NCBI RefSeq assembly: GCF_030384885.1
Contig: NZ_CP128613.1
Strand: one strand, 5' to 3'
DNA from: Escherichia coli
Lineage (GTDB): Bacteria > Pseudomonadota > Gammaproteobacteria > Enterobacterales > Enterobacteriaceae
DNA length: 64,000 nucleotides
A program made the position numbers and the translations under genes. This document shows, piece after piece, positions 51,511 to 62,788 of the stretch (positions within the stretch are counted from its first letter, which is position 1; every line of letters starts with the position of its first letter). The notes beneath the pieces were generated by a model. It saw only the letters and a program-made list of their open reading frames with translations, ran no database searches and was not told where the DNA came from.

Positions 51511-52403
51511 TGCTAAGCGAGGAAACGTCCGTCGTACGCCCACCAAAACAAACGCGATTTAACGGTGCAAAACTGGTATGGATGCTGAAAGGCAGTCCGC
51601 TCACCGTGACCGGCGCAGTCATCATTGTATTAATGCTATTGATGATGATTTTTTCACCGTGGCTGGCGACGCATGATCCCAACGCCATTGATTTAACTGC
51701 CCGCCTTTTGCCGCCTTCTGCGGCGCACTGGTTTGGCACCGATGAAGTGGGACGCGATCTGTTTAGCCGCGTACTGGTCGGCAGTCAGCAATCAATTCTC
51801 GCCGGATTAGTGGTGGTCGCCATTGCGGGTATGATGGGTTCGCTACTCGGGTGTCTATCCGGTGTGCTTGGCGGACGCGCAGACGCGATCATCATGCGCA
51901 TCATGGACATTATGCTGTCGATTCCTTCGCTGGTGCTGACAATGGCGCTGGCTGCCGCACTTGGACCGAGTTTGTTTAACGCCATGCTGGCGATTGCTAT
52001 CGTGCGAATCCCGTTTTATGTGCGCCTGGCGCGGGGGCAAACATTAGTTGTCCGCCAGTACACTTTCGTTCAGGCGGCGAAAACCTTCGGTGCGTCACGC
52101 TGGCATCTGATCAACTGGCATATTTTACGTAACTCCCTGCCGCCGCTGATTGTGCAGGCATCGCTGGATATTGGTAGCGCGATTTTAATGGCCGCCACGT
52201 TGGGATTTATTGGCCTGGGTGCTCAACAACCGAGTGCTGAATGGGGGGCGATGGTGGCGAATGGTCGCAACTATGTGCTCGATCAATGGTGGTATTGCGC
52301 ATTTCCGGGGGCAGCGATTTTGCTTACCGCCGTCGGGTTCAATCTCTTTGGTGATGGTATTCGCGATCTGCTTGACCCGAAAGCAGGAGGAAAGCAGTCA
52401 TGA
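51507..52403 (+). CDS. ddpC: D,D-dipeptide ABC transporter permease
   Basis: 298 aa; 4-nt overlap with ddpB. Confidence 0.9.
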   Translation: MMLSEETSVVRPPKQTRFNGAKLVWMLKGSPLTVTGAVIIVLMLLMMIFSPWLATHDPNAIDLTARLLPPSAAHWFGTDEVGRDLFSRVLVGSQQSILAGLVVVAIAGMMGSLLGCLSGVLGGRADAIIMRIMDIMLSIPSLVLTMALAAALGPSLFNAMLAIAIVRIPFYVRLARGQTLVVRQYTFVQAAKTFGASRWHLINWHILRNSLPPLIVQASLDIGSAILMAATLGFIGLGAQQPSAEWGAMVANGRNYVLDQWWYCAFPGAAILLTAVGFNLFGDGIRDLLDPKAGGKQS

Positions 52404-53386
52404 CCCAACCCGTTCTGGACATTCAACAACTGCATTTGAGTTTCTCCGGTTTTAACGGCGACGTTCACGCGCTCAACAATGTGTCATTGAAAATCAACCG
52501 CGGTGAAATTGTCGGTCTGGTGGGAGAATCCGGCTCGGGTAAATCAGTCACTGCAATGTTGATTATGCGTCTGTTACCGACGGGCAGTTATTGCGTACAT
52601 CGGGGACATATTTCACTGCTGGGAGAAGATGCTCTTAACGCTCGGGAAAAACAGCTTCGTCAGTGGCGCGGCGCACGAGTGGCGATGATCTTTCAGGAAC
52701 CGATGACCGCCCTAAATCCGACACGTCGAATAGGTCTTCAGATGATGGACGTGATCCGCCATCATCAACCAATAAGTCGTCGGGAAGCCAGAGCTAAAGC
52801 GATTGCCCTGCTGGAAGAGATGCAAATCCCGGATGCCGTGGAAGTTATGTCGCGCTATCCGTTTGAGCTTTCAGGTGGTATGCGCCAGCGGGTAATGATT
52901 GCGCTGGCATTCTCCTGCGAGCCGCAATTGATTATTGCCGACGAACCGACTACGGCGCTGGACGTCACGGTACAGTTGCAGGTACTGCGTCTGCTTAAAC
53001 ATAAAGCCCGCGCCAGTGGAACTGCGGTACTGTTCATCAGCCATGATATGGCCGTGGTGTCGCAACTGTGCGATAGCGTTTACGTGATGTATGCCGGAAG
53101 CGTGATCGAGAGCGGTATGACGGCAGACGTTATCCATCATCCCCGGCATCCGTATACCATTGGTTTGCTGCAATGCGCACCGGAACATGGAATACCACGC
53201 CAGCCATTACCCGCCATTCCAGGGACGGTACCAAACCTCACCCATTTGCCTGACGGCTGCGCTTTTCGCGATCGTTGCTATGCGGCAGGTACACAGTGTG
53301 AAAACGTCCCGGCGCTGACAGCGTGTGGTGACAACAACCACCGCTGCGCCTGTTGGTATCCTCAGCAGGAGGTCATTAGTGTCTGA
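52400..53386 (+). CDS. ddpD: D,D-dipeptide ABC transporter ATPase
   Basis: 328 aa; Walker A GESGSGKS. Confidence 0.9.
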   Translation: MTQPVLDIQQLHLSFSGFNGDVHALNNVSLKINRGEIVGLVGESGSGKSVTAMLIMRLLPTGSYCVHRGHISLLGEDALNAREKQLRQWRGARVAMIFQEPMTALNPTRRIGLQMMDVIRHHQPISRREARAKAIALLEEMQIPDAVEVMSRYPFELSGGMRQRVMIALAFSCEPQLIIADEPTTALDVTVQLQVLRLLKHKARASGTAVLFISHDMAVVSQLCDSVYVMYAGSVIESGMTADVIHHPRHPYTIGLLQCAPEHGIPRQPLPAIPGTVPNLTHLPDGCAFRDRCYAAGTQCENVPALTACGDNNHRCACWYPQQEVISV

Positions 53387-54305
53387 CACGTTATTAACGT
53401 TACGCGACGTCCATATCAATTTCCCGGCCCGAAAAAACTGGCTTGGTAAAACTACGGAACATGTTCATGCCATCAATGGTATTGATTTACAGATCCGTCG
53501 TGGTGAAACCTTAGGGATCGTCGGTGAGTCAGGCTGCGGCAAAAGCACCCTCGCGCAGCTTTTAATGGGTATGCTGCAACCGAGCCACGGGCAGTACATC
53601 CGTTCAGGATCACAACGCATTATGCAGATGGTGTTTCAGGACCCGCTCTCTTCGCTTAATCCGCGCTTACCGGTGTGGCGCATCATCACGGAACCGCTCT
53701 GGATTGCTAAGCGTAGTAGTGAACAACAGCGGCGAGCGTTGGCAGAGGAGCTGGCTGTGCAGGTGGGTATTCGTCCGGAGTATCTCGACCGCTTGCCTCA
53801 TGCGTTCTCAGGCGGGCAGCGGCAACGTATCGCCATTGCCAGAGCACTCTCTTCGCAGCCTGACGTGATTGTGCTTGATGAGCCCACCTCGGCGCTGGAT
53901 ATCTCCGTGCAGGCGCAGATCCTCAATTTACTGGTAACGCTACAGGAAAATCGCGGGCTGACTTATGTGCTGATTTCACACAATGTCTCGGTGATACGTC
54001 ATATGAGCGATCGGGTGGCGGTGATGTATCTCGGACAGATTGTTGAACTAGGAGACGCGCAACAGGTGCTGACAGCTCCGGCACATCCATACACCAGATT
54101 ATTGCTGGATTCCCTCCCCGCCATTGATAAACCGCTGGAGGAAGAATGGGCATTGCGTAAAACGGAACTACCAGGAAACCGCACGTTGCCGCCGGGCTGT
54201 TTTTTCCGTGAACGTTGCCCTCTGGCAACCCACGGATGTGAAGTCCGGCAATCATTAACAATAAGGGAGGACGGACGTGAGATCCGGTGCTGGCGGGCGC
54301 TGTAG
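53379..54305 (+). CDS. ddpF: D,D-dipeptide ABC transporter ATPase
   Basis: 308 aa from GTG 53379 (AGGAGG RBS), overlapping ddpD stop; Walker A GESGCGKS. Confidence 0.85.
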   Translation: MSDTLLTLRDVHINFPARKNWLGKTTEHVHAINGIDLQIRRGETLGIVGESGCGKSTLAQLLMGMLQPSHGQYIRSGSQRIMQMVFQDPLSSLNPRLPVWRIITEPLWIAKRSSEQQRRALAEELAVQVGIRPEYLDRLPHAFSGGQRQRIAIARALSSQPDVIVLDEPTSALDISVQAQILNLLVTLQENRGLTYVLISHNVSVIRHMSDRVAVMYLGQIVELGDAQQVLTAPAHPYTRLLLDSLPAIDKPLEEEWALRKTELPGNRTLPPGCFFRERCPLATHGCEVRQSLTIREDGREIRCWRAL

Positions 54306-54342
54306 AGACGCGGCATCCGGCTATTGCATGTCTGTGGAAACG

Positions 54343-55233
54343 TTATGCGTCATAGGTTTTTTTTAACGTTTCCATCAACGCTTGCGCCGCAGTAGAAAGC
54401 TTATGGTGTGACGAACGCAGAACGCCTACCCGTCGCTCAATCACCGGATTATCCAGTTCCAGACACACTGCGCCCAATTCGCTCATCTGCCTGCGGCACA
54501 GTGCAGGCACAGCGCTGCCCCCCAAACCGTTTGCCACCAGCCGCCCAACCGTAACCAGTTGATGGCTTTCCAGCGCCACTTCCAGTTGCGTTCCACTTTG
54601 TGCCAATTCCTCTTCCAGCATCAACCTGACGGCTGACGGTCGCTGGAGGGTGATAAAATCGAGCGTCAGCAAATCCCGCCAGCTCACGCGTTGCCGATTT
54701 GCCAGTCGGGAATCGGCTGGAACAATAGCAACAAACCGATCCACGCCCAGCGGGATAAAATGCAAATGGCCGCAATAGTCAGGTTCAAAGGCAATCCCCA
54801 TCTCCACGCGCCCTTCACTCACCATTTCGATTACCAGCTCATTCACCACATCGTGCACAGTGACGTTAATCCCTGAATAACAATCGCGGAAGGTTTTCAG
54901 CACCGGAGGCAAAACGTTGGCCGCAAATGACGGCATCGCTGCCACTGAGACTTTGCCCCGCCTGAGCGTGAATCGCTGACGCATGGCCTCTTCGGTGTTA
55001 TCCCAGTCAGCCAGCAAAGGCCGTGCCATCGACAATAGCGTTTCCCCCTCCTGGGTTAACGTCACTTTTCGCGTAGTACGCAGCAGTAAAGCGCCCCCTA
55101 AGGCATCTTCCAGTCCTTTAATGGCAAGACTTAGCGCAGGCTGCGACATATTCAGCCGTTCACTGGCATGGGCAAAGTTCAGAGTGTGAGCTACCGCTAA
55201 AAACGCGCGTAACTGTTTGATGCTCATTTTCAT
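54343..55233 (-). CDS. LysR-family transcriptional regulator (296 aa), divergent from CoA-transferase operon
   Basis: N-terminal LysR HTH (MSQPALSLAIKGLEDALGG); occupies the position where osmC is expected. Confidence 0.85.
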   Translation of the reverse strand: MKMSIKQLRAFLAVAHTLNFAHASERLNMSQPALSLAIKGLEDALGGALLLRTTRKVTLTQEGETLLSMARPLLADWDNTEEAMRQRFTLRRGKVSVAAMPSFAANVLPPVLKTFRDCYSGINVTVHDVVNELVIEMVSEGRVEMGIAFEPDYCGHLHFIPLGVDRFVAIVPADSRLANRQRVSWRDLLTLDFITLQRPSAVRLMLEEELAQSGTQLEVALESHQLVTVGRLVANGLGGSAVPALCRRQMSELGAVCLELDNPVIERRVGVLRSSHHKLSTAAQALMETLKKTYDA

Positions 55234-55374
55234 CTGGTATTCCGTTAACTTGTTGAATACATTTAATTAACATTATATTTATAAATAATACAAATGAATG
55301 AGTCACAAATTTAAAATTAACAAATCATTTTTTGCCCTTAATGATGTTGGAAAGGACAACTGGAGGGCAACTGT

Positions 55375-56082
55375 ATGGCTGGGCTGGATAAACGGGTCGC
55401 TACGTATCACGAGGCGCTTGAAGGACTTACCAATGAGATGACGATTCTGGCGGGAGGTTTTGGCCTGTGCGGCATCCCGGAGAATCTGATTGCTGAAGTT
55501 CGCCACCGTGGAGTAACCGCATTGACGGTGGTTTCCAATAACTGTGGCGTAGACGGTTTTGGACTGGGTGTACTGCTGGAAACCCGACAGATCCGTAAAG
55601 TCATCGCTTCTTATGTTGGCGAAAATGCTTTGTTTGAAAAACAGGTGCTTAACGGCGAACTGGAGGCGATTCTCACACCACAAGGAACCCTGGCAGAACA
55701 ACTGCGCGCAGGCGGCGCGGGCATCCCGGCGTTCTTTACTGCCACCGGTTACGGTACACCCGTTGCCGAAGGGAAAGAAGTCCGCGAATTCAACGGTCGC
55801 CCGTACATAATGGAACAGGCTATCACCGGTGATTTTGCCCTGGTCAAAGGCTGGAAAGCCGACTGGTACGGCAACGTGATTTATCGTCATACCGCGCAAA
55901 ACTTCAACCCACTGATGGCGGCTGCCGGAAAAATCACCGTGGTGGAAGTGGAAGAGATTGTGCCGCCTGGTGAACTTGATCCTGCCGCAATCCATACCCC
56001 AGGGATTTTTGTTAATCGCGTCATTCAGGGGCAATTTGAAAAACGCATTGAACAACGCACCCTTAGCCGCAAAGGAGCCTGA
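55375..56082 (+). CDS. 3-oxoacid (acetoacetate/succinyl-CoA) CoA-transferase subunit A
   Basis: 235 aa; strongly ScoA/OXCT-like ([47 protein letters not shown]). Confidence 0.85.
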
Positions 56083-56084
56083 CC

Positions 56085-56741
56085 ATGTTAACCCGTGAAC
56101 AAATGGCGATGCGAGTCGCCCGCGAATTGCGCGATGGCTATTACGTCAATCTCGGCATTGGTATCCCGACCCTGGTGGCAAACTACATTCCTGACGGGAT
56201 GGATGTGATGTTGCAGTCAGAAAACGGTTTGCTGGGAATGGGCGCATTTCCTACGGAAGATGAACTGGACGCCGACATGATTAACGCCGGTAAACAAACC
56301 GTTACCGCACGGAAAGGCGCGGCAATTTTCGATTCGGCGCAATCTTTCGCCATGATCCGTGGCGGCCATGTGGATCTGACTGTGCTTGGCGCATTTGAAG
56401 TGGATGTGAATGGCAACATTGCCTCATGGATGATCCCCGGCAAGATGGTTAAAGGCATGGGCGGTGCCATGGATCTGGTTGCCGGTGCCGAGAATATTAT
56501 TGTGGTAATGACCCACGCCTCCAAATCCGGCGAATCCAAACTGCTTCCCGACTGTACCCTGCCATTGACTGGCGTCGGCTGCATCAAACGCGTCTTAACC
56601 GACCTTGCTCTGCTGGAAATTGCTGACGGCGCTTTCATTCTGCGCGAGCGCGCGCCGGGAATCAGCGTTGCGGAAATCGTCGCCAAAACCGCCGGTAAGT
56701 TGTTTGTGCCGGAACATGTCCCGGAAATGCAATTCAACTGA
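56085..56741 (+). CDS. 3-oxoacid CoA-transferase subunit B
   Basis: 218 aa; adjacent and co-oriented with subunit A. Confidence 0.85.
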   Translation: MLTREQMAMRVARELRDGYYVNLGIGIPTLVANYIPDGMDVMLQSENGLLGMGAFPTEDELDADMINAGKQTVTARKGAAIFDSAQSFAMIRGGHVDLTVLGAFEVDVNGNIASWMIPGKMVKGMGGAMDLVAGAENIIVVMTHASKSGESKLLPDCTLPLTGVGCIKRVLTDLALLEIADGAFILRERAPGISVAEIVAKTAGKLFVPEHVPEMQFN

Positions 56742-56750
56742 GGAATCACC

Positions 56751-57956
56751 ATGCAGGACGTTGTTATTGTTGCCGCTACGCGCACGCCGATTGGCTGTTT
56801 TCATGGCGCTCTCGCACCACTTTCTGCGGTTGATCTCGGCGCTGCCACCATCCGTTCATTGCTGGAGAAAACCGCACTTGCAGCAGAACAGATCGATGAA
56901 GTGATTTTTGGTCAGGTCCTGACTGCCGGAAGCGGACAAAACCCAGCACGGCAATCGGCGCTCAAAGCCGGGTTAAGCCACGATACACCCGCCGTTACCA
57001 TCAACCTGGTATGTGGTTCCGGTTTGAAAGCCGTACACCAGGCCGTGCAGGCGATCCGCTGTGGTGATGCACAGATCATTATCGCAGGTGGCCAGGAAAG
57101 CATGAGCAACGCGCCCTATTTTATTGATGGCGCGCGGGCAGGTTTACGCCTCGGGCATACCAGCATGAAAGACAGCGTGGTTCATGACGGACTATGGGAT
57201 GCTTTCAATGATTACCACATGGGCATTACTGCAGAAAACCTGGCGCAAAAATATGCCATCAGTCGCGAGCGCCAGGACACATTCGCGCTACGTTCTCAGC
57301 AAAAAGCCGCTGCCGCAATGGAAGCCTGGCGCTTTGCAGACGAAATTACTCCGGTCAGCGTACCACAAGGTAAAAAACCACCACGCTGGGTAAATACCGA
57401 CGAACAACCACGTTCCGGGACGCAACTGGAAAAACTGGCGCAACTGAAACCGGCCTTTCTTCCGGGGGCAGGAAGCGTCACCGCGGGAAATGCCTCTTCC
57501 ATCAATGATGGTGCCGCCGCAGTCATGTTAATGCGCGCCAGCAAAGCTGCCGAACTTGGCCTCTCTGTGCTGGCTCGGGTGGCCGGTTATGCCGTTTCTG
57601 GCGTCGATCCTGCCTTTATGGGCATCGGTCCGGTCGTCGCTACCCGCGAATGTCTTAAGCGTTGCGGATGGACGCTGGAAGATATTGATCTTATTGAAGC
57701 AAACGAAGCTTTCGCAGCGCAGGCGCTGGCCGTTGGCGACGAACTGAACTGGGATAACGACAAAGTGAATGTTAACGGCGGCGCAATCGCACTTGGGCAT
57801 CCTATTGGCGCTTCTGGTTGCCGCATTCTGGTCACTCTCATTTATGAAATGGCGCGACGTAATGCGCAAAAAGGGCTGGCGACGCTGTGCGTCGGTGGCG
57901 GTCAGGGCGTGGCGCTGACGCTGGAAAGAACCACAGGAGAACACCATGCAAACTGA
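56751..57956 (+). CDS. Acetyl-CoA C-acetyltransferase (thiolase)
   Basis: 401 aa; AtoB-like along full length ([24 protein letters not shown]). Confidence 0.85.
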
Positions 57957-58869
57957 ACAATTTGCGGTACTGGGCGCCGGATTGATGGGCGTGGGGATTG
58001 CCACTCATTTCGCCCGCTTTGGTCATGATATCTGGCTGTACGATACCGAGCAGAGCCGGATTGCTGAAATCCCCGTAGTTGCAGCCGGGATTCTTGATGA
58101 ACTGATTAGCTGCGAACAGTTTACTGCCTCGGGAAAAGAGAATGTGCTTAAACGCCTTCACGGCACGACCTCTCTTGCTGACATCGCCGACTCGCAACTA
58201 CTGATTGAGGCGATCCCGGAGCGGCTTGAACTAAAACACGCATTATATGCCGAGCTTGAAACACTTATTTCTCCTGAGGCCATTGTCGCCAGCAATACCA
58301 GCGGTCTGCCGCCCGATGATCTGGCAGCGAAGATGCGCTACCCGCAACGACTGCTGATCGCCCATTTCTGGCATCCGCCGCACTTCATTCCACTTGTAGA
58401 GATTGTCCCCGGCAGCGTTACCGAGCCAAAGCATTTGCACTGGCTGCAACACTTGCTTGTGTCACTGCAACTGGAAGCTGTGTTGCTGGATCGCGCTGCG
58501 CCAGGATTTGTCGGCAACCGTCTGCAATTTGCACTGTTGCGTGAAGCCCTGCATATCGTAAAAAGCGGCATCGCCAGTGCCGAAGTAGTCGATCAGGTCA
58601 TGCGCGCCTCGCTTGGGCGACGTTATGCCATGGTCGGCCCGCTGGAGGCCGCCGACATGACCGGACTTTCGACGGTGCAGGATATTTGTCGCCATCTTCT
58701 CCCTGAACTGGCGACTGGCAGCGACATGATGTCGTTAGTTGCCGAAAAAGTGGAACGTGGAGACATCGGCGTACGTAGCGGTCAGGGATTTTACCGCTGG
58801 GATGAATCGCGGAAGCAGTACATCCAGCAGCGTCGGGAACATCAGCTTCGCTTCGCCCTGAAACCCTAA
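57946..58869 (+). CDS. 3-hydroxyacyl/3-hydroxybutyryl-CoA dehydrogenase
   Basis: 307 aa; N-terminal Rossmann GxGxxG ([12 protein letters not shown]); overlaps thiolase stop by 11 nt. Confidence 0.8.
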
Positions 58870-58914
58870 CTTCTCTCGCTGTACCCACTATAACAACGAT
58901 ATTGAGGAGTCCCG

Positions 58915-60306
58915 ATGAGTGTATTAATCGCCCTTGCCGCGCTTGGGCTGCTAATGCTGGCAGCCTATCGCGGATACAGCGTTATCCTTTTTGCCCCCAT
59001 CGCGGCATTAGGCGCTGTTCTTGTCACCGATCCGGGGGCTGTTGGCCCAGCATTTACCGGTCTGTTCATGGAAAAAATGGTCGGCTTCGTGAAATTGTAC
59101 TTCCCGGTGTTTCTGCTCGGGGCCGTGTTCGGAAAACTGATTGAGCTTTCAGGATTTTCTCGTTCGATTGTCGCTGCTGCAATCAACATTCTCGGGCGGC
59201 GGCATGCGATTCCGGTGATTGTGCTGGTATGCGCATTACTCACCTATGGCGGCGTGTCGCTGTTTGTGGTGGCATTTGCCGTTTATCCGTTCGCGGCTGA
59301 ATTGTTCCGACAGAGTAATATCCCCAAACGGCTTATACCGGCAACGGTGGCCCTCGGAGCATTCTCTTTTACTATGGACGCTCTGCCCGGCACACCTCAA
59401 ATCCAGAACATTATTCCCACCAGTTTCTTTGGCACCAACGCCTGGGCCGCGCCGTGGCTGGGGCTCATTGGTTCACTGTTTATCATTGCCGTCGGGCTTA
59501 TCTATCTGGAGCGACAGCGTCGTAAAGCGCATGCAAAAAATGAAGGTTACGGCACAGAGTTACTTAATGAACCTGAAACGCCAGACAACATCAATTTGCC
59601 GAATCCACTCATTGCGATTTCACCGTTGATTCTGGTGGGGCTGTTGAACTTGTTGTTTACCTGGTGGATCCCTGTTTGGTACGGTGCGAGTCACCAACTG
59701 GAGTTGCCAGGACTTGCCGCCCCGATCACTACAGATGTCGCCAAAATCACCGCTATCTGGGCCGTTGAAGCAGCGCTCATTGCCGGAATTTTGCTGGTGG
59801 TGATTTTCGGATATCGCAATATTCATGGAAGACTGGCAGAAGGAAGCCGTACTGCGGTGGGTGGCGCAATTCTGGCCGCGATGAACACCGCCTCAGAATA
59901 TGGCTTCGGTGCGGTTATCGCCGCTCTGCCCGGTTTTCTGGTGCTCTCAAAGGCGCTGGCTGCCATTCCAGATCCATTACTCAACGAAGCCATCAGCATC
60001 ACCACGCTTGCCGGCATTACCGGTTCAGCGTCCGGCGGGATGAGTATTGCTCTTGCGGCTATGTCCGACACTTTTATTGCCGCTGCGCACGCTGCCAATA
60101 TTCCACTGGAAGTTTTTCACCGCGTGGCATCTATGGCCAGTGGCGGCATGGATACATTGCCCCATAACGGCGCAGTGATCACTCTGCTGGCAATTACTGG
60201 GCTGAGTCACCGTCAGGCTTACGGCGGTATCTTCGCAATTACGATCATTAAAAGTCTGGCCGTGCTGTTTATCATCGGCGTGTACTACACCACCGGCATT
60301 GTCTAA
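58915..60306 (+). CDS. Polytopic permease (GntP-like family; candidate 3-hydroxybutyrate / short-chain acid transporter)
   Basis: 463 aa, highly hydrophobic with central hydrophilic loop; family assignment by resemblance only. Confidence 0.6.
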   Translation: MSVLIALAALGLLMLAAYRGYSVILFAPIAALGAVLVTDPGAVGPAFTGLFMEKMVGFVKLYFPVFLLGAVFGKLIELSGFSRSIVAAAINILGRRHAIPVIVLVCALLTYGGVSLFVVAFAVYPFAAELFRQSNIPKRLIPATVALGAFSFTMDALPGTPQIQNIIPTSFFGTNAWAAPWLGLIGSLFIIAVGLIYLERQRRKAHAKNEGYGTELLNEPETPDNINLPNPLIAISPLILVGLLNLLFTWWIPVWYGASHQLELPGLAAPITTDVAKITAIWAVEAALIAGILLVVIFGYRNIHGRLAEGSRTAVGGAILAAMNTASEYGFGAVIAALPGFLVLSKALAAIPDPLLNEAISITTLAGITGSASGGMSIALAAMSDTFIAAAHAANIPLEVFHRVASMASGGMDTLPHNGAVITLLAITGLSHRQAYGGIFAITIIKSLAVLFIIGVYYTTGIV

Positions 60307-60317
60307 GGAGAATCATC

Positions 60318-60695
60318 ATGAATTTACAAGGTAAAACTGCGCTTGTGACGGGGTCCTCCAGCGGTATTGGACTCGGTATTGCTCAGACACTGGCAAAAGC
60401 CGGCGCGCAAGTGATCCTCAACGGCTTCGGTGATGTTGACGCGGCAATCAATGGAGTTTCTCGTGTGGGTAAAACGCCTGGCTATCATGAGGCAGACCTC
60501 AGCGATGAATCGCAAATTGTCAGCATGATGGCCTACGCACGGAGGGAATTTGGCGGTGTGGACATTCTGGTGAATAACGCCGGGATCCAATTGGAGCTGA
60601 CCAAATGGGTGGAAGCTTCTGATAACGACATCCTCAGTGATATCTACCAGCAAACGATCAATTATGTGGTCAGTGGCCAGCACCCTACGCTTTAA
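60318..60695 (+). pseudogene. Chimeric ORF: truncated SDR (3-hydroxybutyrate-dehydrogenase-like N-terminus, about 95 aa) fused in frame to apparent 3' end of bdm
   Basis: N-terminus GKTALVTGSSSGIGLGIA...DILVNNAGIQ is SDR-like but stops at about 95 aa (full SDR about 250 aa); the last 34 aa are not SDR-like and lie directly upstream of sra where bdm is expected. Confidence 0.6.
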
Positions 60696-60796
60696 GGTGC
60701 TATGCTTGATCGGCAACCTAATTTAGGGGTTTAGCACGTGTTTCTTCGCTACGGCGATGTTGTCCTTAAAACTAGCAACAGGATTGAGGAGTTAAA

Positions 60797-60934
60797 ATGA
60801 AATCGAACCGTCAGGCACGTCATATTCTTGGACTGGACCATAAAATTTCTAACCAGCGCAAAATAGTTACCGAAGGTGACAAATCCAGCGTGGTAAATAA
60901 CCCAACCGGCAGAAAACGCCCCGCTGAAAAGTAA
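60797..60934 (+). CDS. sra: Stationary-phase-induced ribosome-associated protein (45 aa)
   Basis: [45 protein letters not shown] matches recalled Sra; AGGAG RBS; below ORF-track cutoff. Confidence 0.85.
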
Positions 60935-60964
60935 TCTTTAACAATCAGTCCTCAATGACGATTA

Positions 60965-60999
60965 AACACCATTGCCTGCGCAATGGTGTTTTTGTTTTT
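60965..60999 (+). terminator. Rho-independent terminator after sra
   Basis: AACACCATTGC-CTGC-GCAATGGTGTT followed by TTTTGTTTTT. Confidence 0.8.
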
Positions 61000-61090
61000 A
61001 ACTGCTTTATACTTGGAGCCGACGCCCTGGCGGTAAAGCAAAGACGATAAAAGCACCCCAGGGATGGATATTCAAAAAAGAGTGAGTGAC

Positions 61091-62788
61091 ATGGAACCAA
61101 AAACAAAAAAACAGCGTTCGCTTTATATTCCTTACGCTGGCCCTGTACTGCTGGAATTTCCGTTGTTGAATAAAGGCAGCGCCTTCAGCATGGAAGAACG
61201 CCGTAACTTCAACCTGCTGGGGTTACTGCCGGAAGTGGTCGAAACCATCGAAGAACAAGCGGAACGCGCATGGATCCAGTATCAGGGATTCAAAACCGAA
61301 ATCGACAAACACATCTACCTGCGTAACATCCAGGACACCAACGAAACCCTCTTCTACCGTCTGGTAAACAATCATCTTGATGAGATGATGCCTGTTATTT
61401 ATACCCCAACCGTCGGCGCAGCCTGTGAGCGTTTTTCTGAGATCTACCGCCGTTCACGCGGCGTGTTTATCTCTTACCAGAACCGCCACAATATGGACGA
61501 TATTCTGCAAAACGTGCCGAACCATAATATTAAAGTGATTGTGGTGACTGACGGCGAACGTATTCTGGGGCTTGGTGACCAGGGCATCGGTGGGATGGGT
61601 ATTCCGATCGGTAAACTGTCGCTCTATACCGCCTGCGGCGGCATCAGCCCGGCGTATACACTGCCGGTGGTGCTGGATGTCGGGACGAACAACCAGCAGT
61701 TGCTTAACGACCCGCTGTATATGGGCTGGCGTAATCCACGTATCACTGACGACGAATACTATGAATTCGTGGATGAATTTATCCAGGCTGTGAAGCAACG
61801 CTGGCCGGACGTGTTATTGCAGTTTGAAGATTTTGCACAGAAAAACGCGATGCCGTTGCTTAACCGCTATCGCAATGAAATTTGTTCTTTTAACGATGAT
61901 ATTCAGGGCACCGCGGCGGTAACAGTCGGCACACTGATCGCAGCCAGCCGTGCGGCGGGCGGTCAGTTAAGCGAGAAAAAAATCGTCTTCCTCGGCGCAG
62001 GTTCAGCAGGATGCGGCATTGCGGAGATGATCATCGCCCAGACTCAGCGTGAAGGATTAAGCGAAGAAGCGGCGCGGCAGAAAGTCTTTATGGTCGATCG
62101 CTTTGGTCTGCTGACCGACAAGATGCCGAACCTGCTGCCTTTCCAGACCAAACTGGTGCAGAAGCGCGAAAATCTCAGTGACTGGGATACTGACAGCGAT
62201 GTGCTGTCATTGCTTGATGTGGTGCGCAATGTCAAACCGGATATTCTGATTGGCGTCTCAGGACAGACCGGGCTGTTTACGGAAGAGATCATCCGTGAGA
62301 TGCACAAACACTGTCCGCGTCCGATCGTGATGCCGCTGTCTAACCCGACTTCACGTGTGGAAGCCACACCGCAGGACATTATCGCCTGGACCGAAGGTAA
62401 CGCGCTGGTCGCCACTGGCAGCCCGTTTAATCCAGTGGTATGGAAAGATAAAATCTACCCTATCGCCCAGTGTAATAACGCCTTTATTTTCCCGGGCATC
62501 GGGCTGGGTGTTATTGCTTCCGGCGCGTCACGTATCACCGATGAGATGCTGATGTCGGCAAGCGAAACGCTTGCTCAGTATTCGCCGCTGGTACTGAACG
62601 GCGAAGGTCTGGTACTGCCGGAACTGAAAGATATTCAGAAAGTGTCCCGCGCAATTGCGTTTGCGGTTGGCAAAATGGCGCAGCAGCAAGGCGTGGCGGT
62701 GAAAACGTCTGCCGAAGCTCTGCAACAGGCCATTGATGATAACTTCTGGCAAGCCGAATACCGCGACTACCGCCGTACATCCATCTAA
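61091..62788 (+). CDS. maeA: NAD-dependent malic enzyme
   Basis: 565 aa from ATG 61091 ([23 protein letters not shown]...); matches recalled MaeA. Confidence 0.95.

Follow-up and report, generated by a model that had tools for sequence, protein, structure and literature searches.

A probable long-resident ketone-body operon between ddpF and osmC in Escherichia coli, and its private 1,418-bp deletion in one strain

In the assembly GCF_030384885.1 of Escherichia coli (contig NZ_CP128613.1), a gene for a LysR-type regulator and a divergent row of catabolic genes occupy the space downstream of ddpF (positions 54343-60695 of the 64,000-nt stretch analyzed here, hereafter the window), and osmC is missing. 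An earlier note on this DNA took the arrangement for an islet that replaces osmC. Did the cluster displace osmC, or are the presence of one and the absence of the other separate matters? The answer that we regard as likely overall is that the cluster is a long-resident chromosomal operon for use of 3-hydroxybutyrate and acetoacetate, situated between ddpF and osmC, which in this strain has been damaged by a private deletion of 1,418 bp.

We used the closest complete genome, E. coli 2013C-4282 (NZ_CP027579; L001), as the reference for both the cluster and the deletion. The window is 100% identical to it over 54343-60591 and 99.8% identical over a wider region. In 2013C-4282, the operon runs into a gene for a 256-residue 3-hydroxybutyrate dehydrogenase (bdhA), followed by convergent osmC and then by bdm, sra and maeA. 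The window lacks L001 positions 8793-10210, with the junction at 60591|60592. Gone are bdhA codons 92-256, the entire osmC gene, the osmC-bdm intergenic region (which we take to hold the osmC and bdm promoters) and bdm codons 1-37. A deletion of just this kind, reaching from within a short-chain dehydrogenase/reductase (SDR) gene across osmC into bdm and taking the 3' end of the first and the 5' end of the last, had been proposed in the earlier note, and that proposal holds.

The junction is blunt, with 0 nt of microhomology, and forms a hybrid codon, TTG (Leu92). As the two frames are joined in phase, the result is an open reading frame (ORF) of 125 residues composed of BdhA 1-91, the hybrid leucine and Bdm 39-71. 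The SDR gene is thus truncated, as had been noted, but the ORF is an in-frame chimera rather than a simple fragment. Protein families were assigned by NCBIfam profile searches with curated cutoffs. In the chimera, 3-hydroxybutyrate dehydrogenase models match residues 1-92, and the Bdm model NF008515 matches residues 85-125. The BdhA portion keeps the motifs TGSSSGIG (11-18) and NNAG (86-89), while Ser139, Tyr152 and Lys156 lie beyond residue 91 and are lost; because these residues are absent, the chimera cannot be an active dehydrogenase. Scores fall far below the dehydrogenase cutoffs (93.8 versus 258 for PRK12429, and 84.3 versus 307 for TIGR01963), whereas full-length BdhA of 2013C-4282 passes both (368.8 and 341, respectively) and three 3-hydroxybutyrate dehydrogenase models in all.

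The features of the locus, with the basis for each in parentheses, are these:

53379..54305, plus strand: ddpF, the left flank and final gene in the ddp operon, which encodes a D,D-dipeptide ABC transporter (protein matching that of NZ_CP027579 at 100%)
54309..60591, unstranded: retained part of the cluster, 6,283 bp of 6,792 bp (boundaries of the window and 2013C-4282 against the K-12-type empty site, L003)
54343..55233, minus strand: LysR-type regulator, 296 residues, divergent from the operon (NCBIfam LysR-family matches; annotation of RefSeq relatives)
55234..55374, unstranded: divergent control region, 141 bp (cross-genus alignment)
55375..56082, plus strand: scoA-type 3-oxoacid coenzyme A (CoA)-transferase subunit A, 235 residues (TIGR02429)
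56085..56741, plus strand: scoB-type 3-oxoacid CoA-transferase subunit B, 218 residues (TIGR02428; SENG motif)
56751..57956, plus strand: acetyl-CoA C-acetyltransferase (thiolase), 401 residues (TIGR01930; catalytic residues)
57946..58869, plus strand: 3-hydroxyacyl-CoA dehydrogenase (3HCDH)-family protein, 307 residues (3HCDH superfamily; gene overlaps the thiolase gene by 11 nt)
58915..60306, plus strand: polytopic permease, 463 residues, putative importer of 3-hydroxybutyrate/acetoacetate (about 11 hydrophobic segments; adjoins bdhA)
60318..60695, plus strand: chimeric BdhA-Bdm ORF, 125 residues (ORF list; NCBIfam)
60318..60591, plus strand: bdhA', the first 274 nt of bdhA, codons 1-91 plus 1 nt (100% identical to L001 8519-8792)
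60591..60592, unstranded: deletion junction (L001 8793-10210 missing)
60592..60695, plus strand: 'bdm, nt 113-216 of bdm, codons 39-71 plus stop, in frame with bdhA (translation; NF008515)
60797..60934, plus strand: intact sra, for the stationary-phase ribosome-associated protein (same sequence as the sra annotated in 2013C-4282)
60964..60991, plus strand: terminator-like hairpin and T-run with a 12-bp stem and T-rich tail (first strong one 3' of the operon)
61091..62788, plus strand: maeA, the right flank (100% protein match; annotation of 2013C-4282)

All of the ORFs that had been listed before, one on the minus strand (54343-55233) and six on the plus strand through 60695, are present, and all cluster ORFs are metabolic or regulatory. 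The intergene gaps from scoA through the chimera are 2, 9, -11, 45 and 11 nt, and a GGAG-type ribosome-binding site precedes each gene. A scan of 53000-62000 against Rfam gave no RNA family. Up to 54308, the window and the K-12-type empty site are collinear.

The absence of osmC was likewise correctly observed: searches of the whole window by tblastn and blastn matched neither OsmC nor the deleted segment. We surveyed 5,426 complete E. coli genomes and found osmC matched in 5,407 of them, while the junction was spanned in none. The exact junction 30-mer occurs in 0 metagenome contigs, the chimeric protein is absent from an index of 153 billion genes, and within the window the junction sequence is unique. 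Both relatives at least 99.6% identical to the haplotype of the window, 2013C-4282 and the goat isolate R32_14_1F, are intact. The deletion is derived and private to this strain.

Simple illegitimate joining is the default mechanism for this event; deletion mediated by microhomology or repeats was considered and rejected, since the junction shows 0 nt of homology and lacks repeats. Could the deletion instead be an artefact of assembly or consensus calling, with bdhA, osmC and bdm all present in full? That the junction is found nowhere else, and that osmC is near-universal in the species, fit such an account, but neither endpoint has a repeat or microhomology able to collapse an assembly, the deleted DNA has no second copy in the window, and identity to the relative stays at 100% in the flanks as far as the junction; we consider an artefact very unlikely. 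Another route would be an insertion sequence (IS) in bdm, followed by IS-mediated adjacent deletion and loss of the IS. E. coli YJR (NZ_CM146016; L002) has an IS3-family element in bdm (L002 10222-11552), whose 5-bp target duplication lies at bdm nt 118-122, only ∼6 nt from the window endpoint at bdm nt 112|113. The two sites are near but not identical, however, no IS or scar marks the window junction, and deletions of this type normally keep the IS. With nothing to tie the YJR insertion to the deletion, the IS route is not supported, and we judge it highly improbable. In its own right, the YJR insertion hints that bdm is prone to breakage or preferentially targeted at this site.

How, then, did the cluster come to lie beside osmC? 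It is present in 231 of the 5,426 complete E. coli genomes (4.3%), always on the chromosome. In 229 of these bdhA is contiguous with osmC, and in 228 everything from the permease gene through sra is kept. Because carriers almost always keep osmC, the presence of the cluster (the minority state) and the later, strain-specific deletion are separate events. These data contradict the idea that the cluster replaces osmC: full-length bdhA with intact osmC, bdm and sra, which the earlier note had itself named as grounds for refutation, is the usual form among carriers, though carriers are a small fraction of the species. In K-12-type genomes, just 55 bp separate ddpF from osmC, the next gene, and where the empty site has 30 bp, bounded by the stop codon of ddpF and the terminator region of osmC, carriers have the intact cluster of 6,792 bp.

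The whole seven-gene cluster is found at the same position, ddpF-[cluster]-osmC-(bdm)-maeA, in ∼20 Citrobacter species, in Escherichia sp. E1V33 and in the representative of a divergent 'E. coli' species. Other chromosomal contexts are seen in Raoultella, Serratia, Enterobacter and Pluralibacter. At every depth, divergence of the cluster genes follows that of the flanks. Compared to the common E. coli haplotype, nucleotide identity is 96-98% for the cluster and 95-96% for the flanks ddpF and maeA. Compared to the divergent Escherichia (L005), the values are 91-94% and 87-92%, with synonymous divergence (dS) of 0.25-0.41 and 0.39-0.57, respectively. Compared to Citrobacter, they are 73-81% and 74-84%, with dS saturated in both. 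All cluster genes have dN/dS of 0.007-0.15, indicative of purifying selection (0.04-0.10 for the LysR gene). The G+C content is 0.52-0.57 in the cluster and 0.53-0.56 in the ddp flank, showing no anomaly. No tRNA gene, integrase or IS was found at the cluster, and its spacers are ordinary. At the two borders there is an imperfect 15-nt similarity, GACGCGGCATCCGGC and GACGCGTCATCCGGC, which looks like terminator or repetitive extragenic palindromic (REP)-type hairpin sequence. Simple recombination between these two elements was rejected as a source of the K-12 empty site, which it cannot yield.

Taken as a whole, the cluster is most likely an old resident operon that most E. coli have lost, and homologous recombination through the conserved flanks may have aided its spread between lineages. 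We give very little credence to the alternative that a 6.3-kb islet was acquired and displaced osmC in one replacement event. The direct ddpF-osmC linkage of K-12-type genomes and the low frequency of the cluster in E. coli would fit an acquisition, and a divergent copy next to transposase fragments in E. coli 23CRST013 indicates that the cluster can move. But carriers almost always have intact osmC, which makes insertion and osmC loss separate events, the position in Citrobacter is identical, the divergence equals that of the flanks, and there is no integrase, tRNA, IS or G+C signal. The idea of an acquired islet is therefore not supported.

The 23CRST013 copy (NZ_AP045773; L063 5974-12106) is a second version of the cluster, ∼90% identical at the nucleotide level. 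Its surroundings include a transposase fragment, a PapB/FocB regulator, an alpha-glucoside phosphotransferase system and csc genes. It has no gene for the 307-residue 3HCDH-family protein; a 349-bp spacer without any remnant stands there instead. Separately, the ddp-maeA neighborhood of the window is unusually divergent from the K-12 type: ddpF and maeA are ∼96% identical to the empty-site genome at the nucleotide level (52400-54305, 61091-62788), and dS in the region is 0.15-0.17 against YJR. Only two complete genomes have the ddp-maeA haplotype of the window, 2013C-4282 and R32_14_1F. Identity to 2013C-4282 falls to 98.6% in ddpD, suggesting a recombination boundary.

What would the operon do? 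The components come from known families, the permease being placed in one by its database label. Substrates, inducer, regulation and phenotypes are here predicted from sequence. ScoA passes TIGR02429 (245.2 bits; cutoff 128.5) and scores below cutoff on the AtoD equivalog NF007394 (199.6 versus 315). ScoB passes TIGR02428 (326.6 bits; cutoff 243.55) and has the SENG motif at residues 45-48. With scoA and scoB adjacent and separated by 2 nt, both subunits qualify as a 3-oxoacid CoA-transferase. The thiolase passes TIGR01930 (498.9 bits; cutoff 240.55), comes just under the cutoff of NF004206 (669.7 versus 688), and has the catalytic residues Cys88 (CGS), His349 (GH) and Cys380 (CVGGG). In the proposed pathway, which is textbook ketone-body catabolism, the permease would import the acid, BdhA would oxidize D-3-hydroxybutyrate to acetoacetate, ScoAB would transfer CoA to form acetoacetyl-CoA, and the thiolase would split the latter into two acetyl-CoA. 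The 307-residue 3HCDH-family enzyme probably admits the L-isomer, as free L-3-hydroxybutyrate or as the CoA ester. The earlier note had called this a complete acetoacetate/3-hydroxybutyrate route; its gene set is right, but in this strain the route is incomplete, the BdhA fragment having no Ser139, Tyr152 or Lys156.

The permease has ∼11 hydrophobic segments and is always adjacent to bdhA in the loci compared. It is the most conserved protein of the cluster, with 81-94% identity out to Pseudomonas and Pantoea. A PDB sequence search gave no match, and BLASTP against GntT of K-12 gave a marginal one (E = 0.007, 28% identity over 94 co-linear residues). One ENA protein, P0006 (597 residues), joins a permease 98% identical to this one to SDR domains; it probably arose in a metagenome assembly, where a frameshift or the gene calling fused the permease and bdhA genes.

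Residues 3-294 of the regulator align to many NCBIfam models of LysR-type transcriptional regulators (E down to 2e-48), with no equivalog cutoff reached. In the control region, a T-N11-A-like dyad, ATTGAATACATTTAAT, is flanked by invariant TTAAC boxes (55245-55249 and 55267-55271), and a conserved promoter-like pair, TTAACA (55317) and AATGAT (55345) spaced by 17 nt, lies upstream of scoA. An alignment of the region from 10 genera/species has a mean column identity of 71%, with the boxes invariant. The region fits a candidate LysR activator site, from which the divergent regulator would control the scoA-scoB-thiolase-3HCDH-permease-bdhA operon.

Might the true substrate be something else, such as 3-oxoadipate, 3-hydroxyvalerate or a carnitine-derived keto acid, with 3-hydroxybutyrate turnover a side activity only? 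The ScoA and ScoB models describe the pcaIJ/scoAB subfamily and are not equivalogs, the thiolase scores well on BktB and PcaF models too, the 3HCDH protein and the regulator have no equivalog, and the permease substrate is only predicted. Set against this, full-length BdhA scores above cutoff on three models for 3-hydroxybutyrate dehydrogenase, the permease-bdhA pair corresponds to the PA2004-bdhA system described for 3-hydroxybutyrate in P. aeruginosa, and no pca, carnitine or BKACE genes lie nearby. On balance, we think a different substrate unlikely and favor 3-hydroxybutyrate and acetoacetate.

For this strain, the predicted outcome is loss of BdhA activity and OsmC defense, leaving current concepts unchanged. 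Oxidation of D-3-hydroxybutyrate by BdhA would be lost, as would defense against organic hydroperoxides by the OsmC peroxiredoxin. Intact Bdm is lost. The acetoacetate branch may persist, since the ScoAB and thiolase genes are intact. The deletion also removed a stable hairpin between bdhA and osmC (-21.7 kcal/mol, z = -2.9), and no other terminator-like site was found on the plus strand between 55375 and 60963. The gene that now follows the truncated operon is sra, which could be read through from the LysR-controlled promoter, because the first strong terminator-like site is now at 60964-60991, after sra.

A number of observations weigh against our overall reading. The deletion is known from the assembled sequence, and although OsmC is lost at least at this locus, a copy could exist outside the window. 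An ancestral state requires many independent losses, including in most E. coli; a scan of representative genomes (one per species, with the 307-residue protein as query) gave no match in other Escherichia and Salmonella species; and the divergent 23CRST013 copy, in its island-like context, shows that horizontal movement also occurs. As for function, no experiment in the literature searched shows that E. coli uses the cluster to grow on 3-hydroxybutyrate or acetoacetate. Activation by the LysR protein, like its inducer, is a prediction. Databases label the permease 'GntP family', yet this label has no support from profile models: the permease gave no Pfam hit and no NCBIfam hit at E ≤ 10. Finally, the 307-residue protein falls under every NCBIfam cutoff, the best score being for FHMPC dehydrogenase (219.6 versus 500), and its best relative in the PDB is 4om8, an FHMPC dehydrogenase with a non-CoA pyridine substrate, ahead of Hbd enzymes.

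The role of this last protein deserves closer attention. It scores below the cutoffs of the Hbd models PRK05808 (179.2 versus 408) and PRK07819 (160.6 versus 319). A 97%-identical representative of its sequence cluster carries both PF02737 and PF00725 in precomputed annotation. Alignment with 4om8 and 4kug reveals SNTSG, HFWHPPH..PLVE and GFVGNR, and the catalytic Ser, His, Glu and Asn positions are conserved. The motif HxxxPPHxIPLVE is common to the 307-residue protein and 4om8, while Hbd has HFFNPAPVMKLVE there. Some orthologues have been automatically named L-gulonate 3-dehydrogenase. PDB 9JHE and related entries proved to be ordinary Hbd from Faecalibacterium, and the gene context of a stand-alone 3HCDH homologue in Pseudomonas viridiflava (L032) was uninformative. 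The 307-residue protein may have free L-3-hydroxybutyrate or (S)-3-hydroxybutyryl-CoA as its substrate, and in both cases the pathway would be extended to the L-isomer. The gene for this protein is dispensable for the core module, because the 23CRST013 copy of the cluster lacks it.

A bolder proposal, which we put forward tentatively and hold to be rather doubtful, is that the 307-residue protein is a free-acid (S)-3-hydroxybutyrate dehydrogenase and that the cluster is a stereo-complete module, handling the D-isomer via BdhA and the L-isomer via the 3HCDH protein, ancestral to Escherichia and Citrobacter and repeatedly lost. The suggestion of a free acid comes from the PPHxIPLVE motif in common with the non-CoA enzyme 4om8 and from the L-gulonate 3-dehydrogenase names. 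If it were true, the deletion would leave a pathway for the L-isomer and acetoacetate only, and sra and the BdhA'-'Bdm chimeric peptide would fall under a ketone-body-responsive LysR promoter.

Ketone bodies are nutrients that come from the host, and P. aeruginosa has been reported to use airway 3-hydroxybutyrate (bioRxiv 10.1101/2024.12.18.629020). On the reading favored here, a dedicated and apparently uncharacterized ketone-body operon is present in ∼4% of E. coli and in most Citrobacter; it may affect fitness in the gut or tissues and explain strain differences in 3-hydroxybutyrate use. The locus would also be a clean example of a minority gene cluster that is an old resident lost by most lineages and not a recent island.

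Elsewhere in the window, positions 1-11276 hold a filamentous (Inovirus-like) prophage in tandem, with 1-2701 100% identical to 8576-11276 (offset 8,575 bp). Among its ORFs, those at 562-1920 and 9137-10495 match an M13 pIV-like assembly secretin, those at 4620-5714 and 8128-9222 a replication protein, and the one at 6392-7786 a virion attachment/structural protein. For the first 24 kb of the window, UM146 gives the best match in E. coli, at only 95.8% identity over 69% of that length. Beside the prophage, a minus-strand ORF of 477 residues (12992-14425) contains about eight 20-residue leucine-rich repeats of the LPX type, with a 60-nt tandem period. Its only matches are to the leucine-rich repeat part of SspH2 and SlrP, two E3 ligases that act as type III effectors, with scores far under the cutoffs, and no ligase (NEL) domain was found in it.

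How does the cluster compare with known systems? Its nearest counterpart is the intact locus of 2013C-4282, 230 other complete E. coli genomes and Citrobacter spp., which has the same genes in the same order and position. From this the window differs by the missing 1,418 bp, that is, the 3' part of bdhA, osmC, the intergenic region and the 5' part of bdm, a case of ordinary gene decay and no new type of system. A literature search by gene names and RefSeq protein accessions found no experimental paper on the intact E. coli/Citrobacter locus, which is annotated.

For acetoacetate and short-chain fatty acids, K-12 has the ato system (atoDAEB with AtoSC). The acetoacetate chemistry is the same, with a two-subunit family-I CoA-transferase and a thiolase. 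The cluster differs in that ScoA is under the AtoD cutoff, the transporter is not AtoE and a LysR protein takes the place of the two-component system; ato, moreover, lies at a different locus and has no dehydrogenases. The dhcR-dhcAB-atoB genes of P. aeruginosa, reportedly described by Wargo and Hogan in 2009, are said to belong to carnitine catabolism. Their layout resembles that of the cluster, with a divergent LysR gene followed by CoA-transferase A, CoA-transferase B and thiolase, and we offer this as a lead only.

In P. putida KT2440, the LysR protein PP_2046 controls PP_2047-2051, which convert (R)-3-hydroxybutyrate to acetoacetate and acetyl-CoA (PMC13390443). Control by LysR, a 3-hydroxyacyl-CoA dehydrogenase and a thiolase are points of likeness; compared by description, that operon differs in having an acyl-CoA dehydrogenase and PP_2049 as key dehydrogenase, with no ScoAB or permease reported (PMC13390443). 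P. aeruginosa takes up 3-hydroxybutyrate via the putative PA2004 transporter and oxidizes it by BdhA, under control of HbcR and RpoN (bioRxiv 10.1101/2024.12.18.629020; PMC8694187). As far as PMC8694187 recounts Lundgren et al. 2015, the Pseudomonas (R)-3-hydroxybutyrate system consists of the PA2004 permease, BdhA (PA2003) and HbcR (PA2005) with RpoN. The resemblance to the cluster lies in the adjacent, orthologous permease (81%) and BdhA (75%).

More broadly, the six catalytic and transport genes are clustered in the Pseudomonas loci compared (L060-L062, 4415-11826), where the proteins are 60-81% identical to those of the window. The order there is 3HCDH, regulator, permease, bdhA, scoA, scoB and thiolase. 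The 3HCDH gene lies upstream of the regulator gene, with a 4-nt overlap in L060 and L062, and a GG-N10-GC promoter-like element precedes the permease gene. In place of the LysR protein, these loci encode a PAS-containing/sigma-54 enhancer-binding protein. Because the gene set stays together while its order and regulator change, the comparison argues for one functional module.

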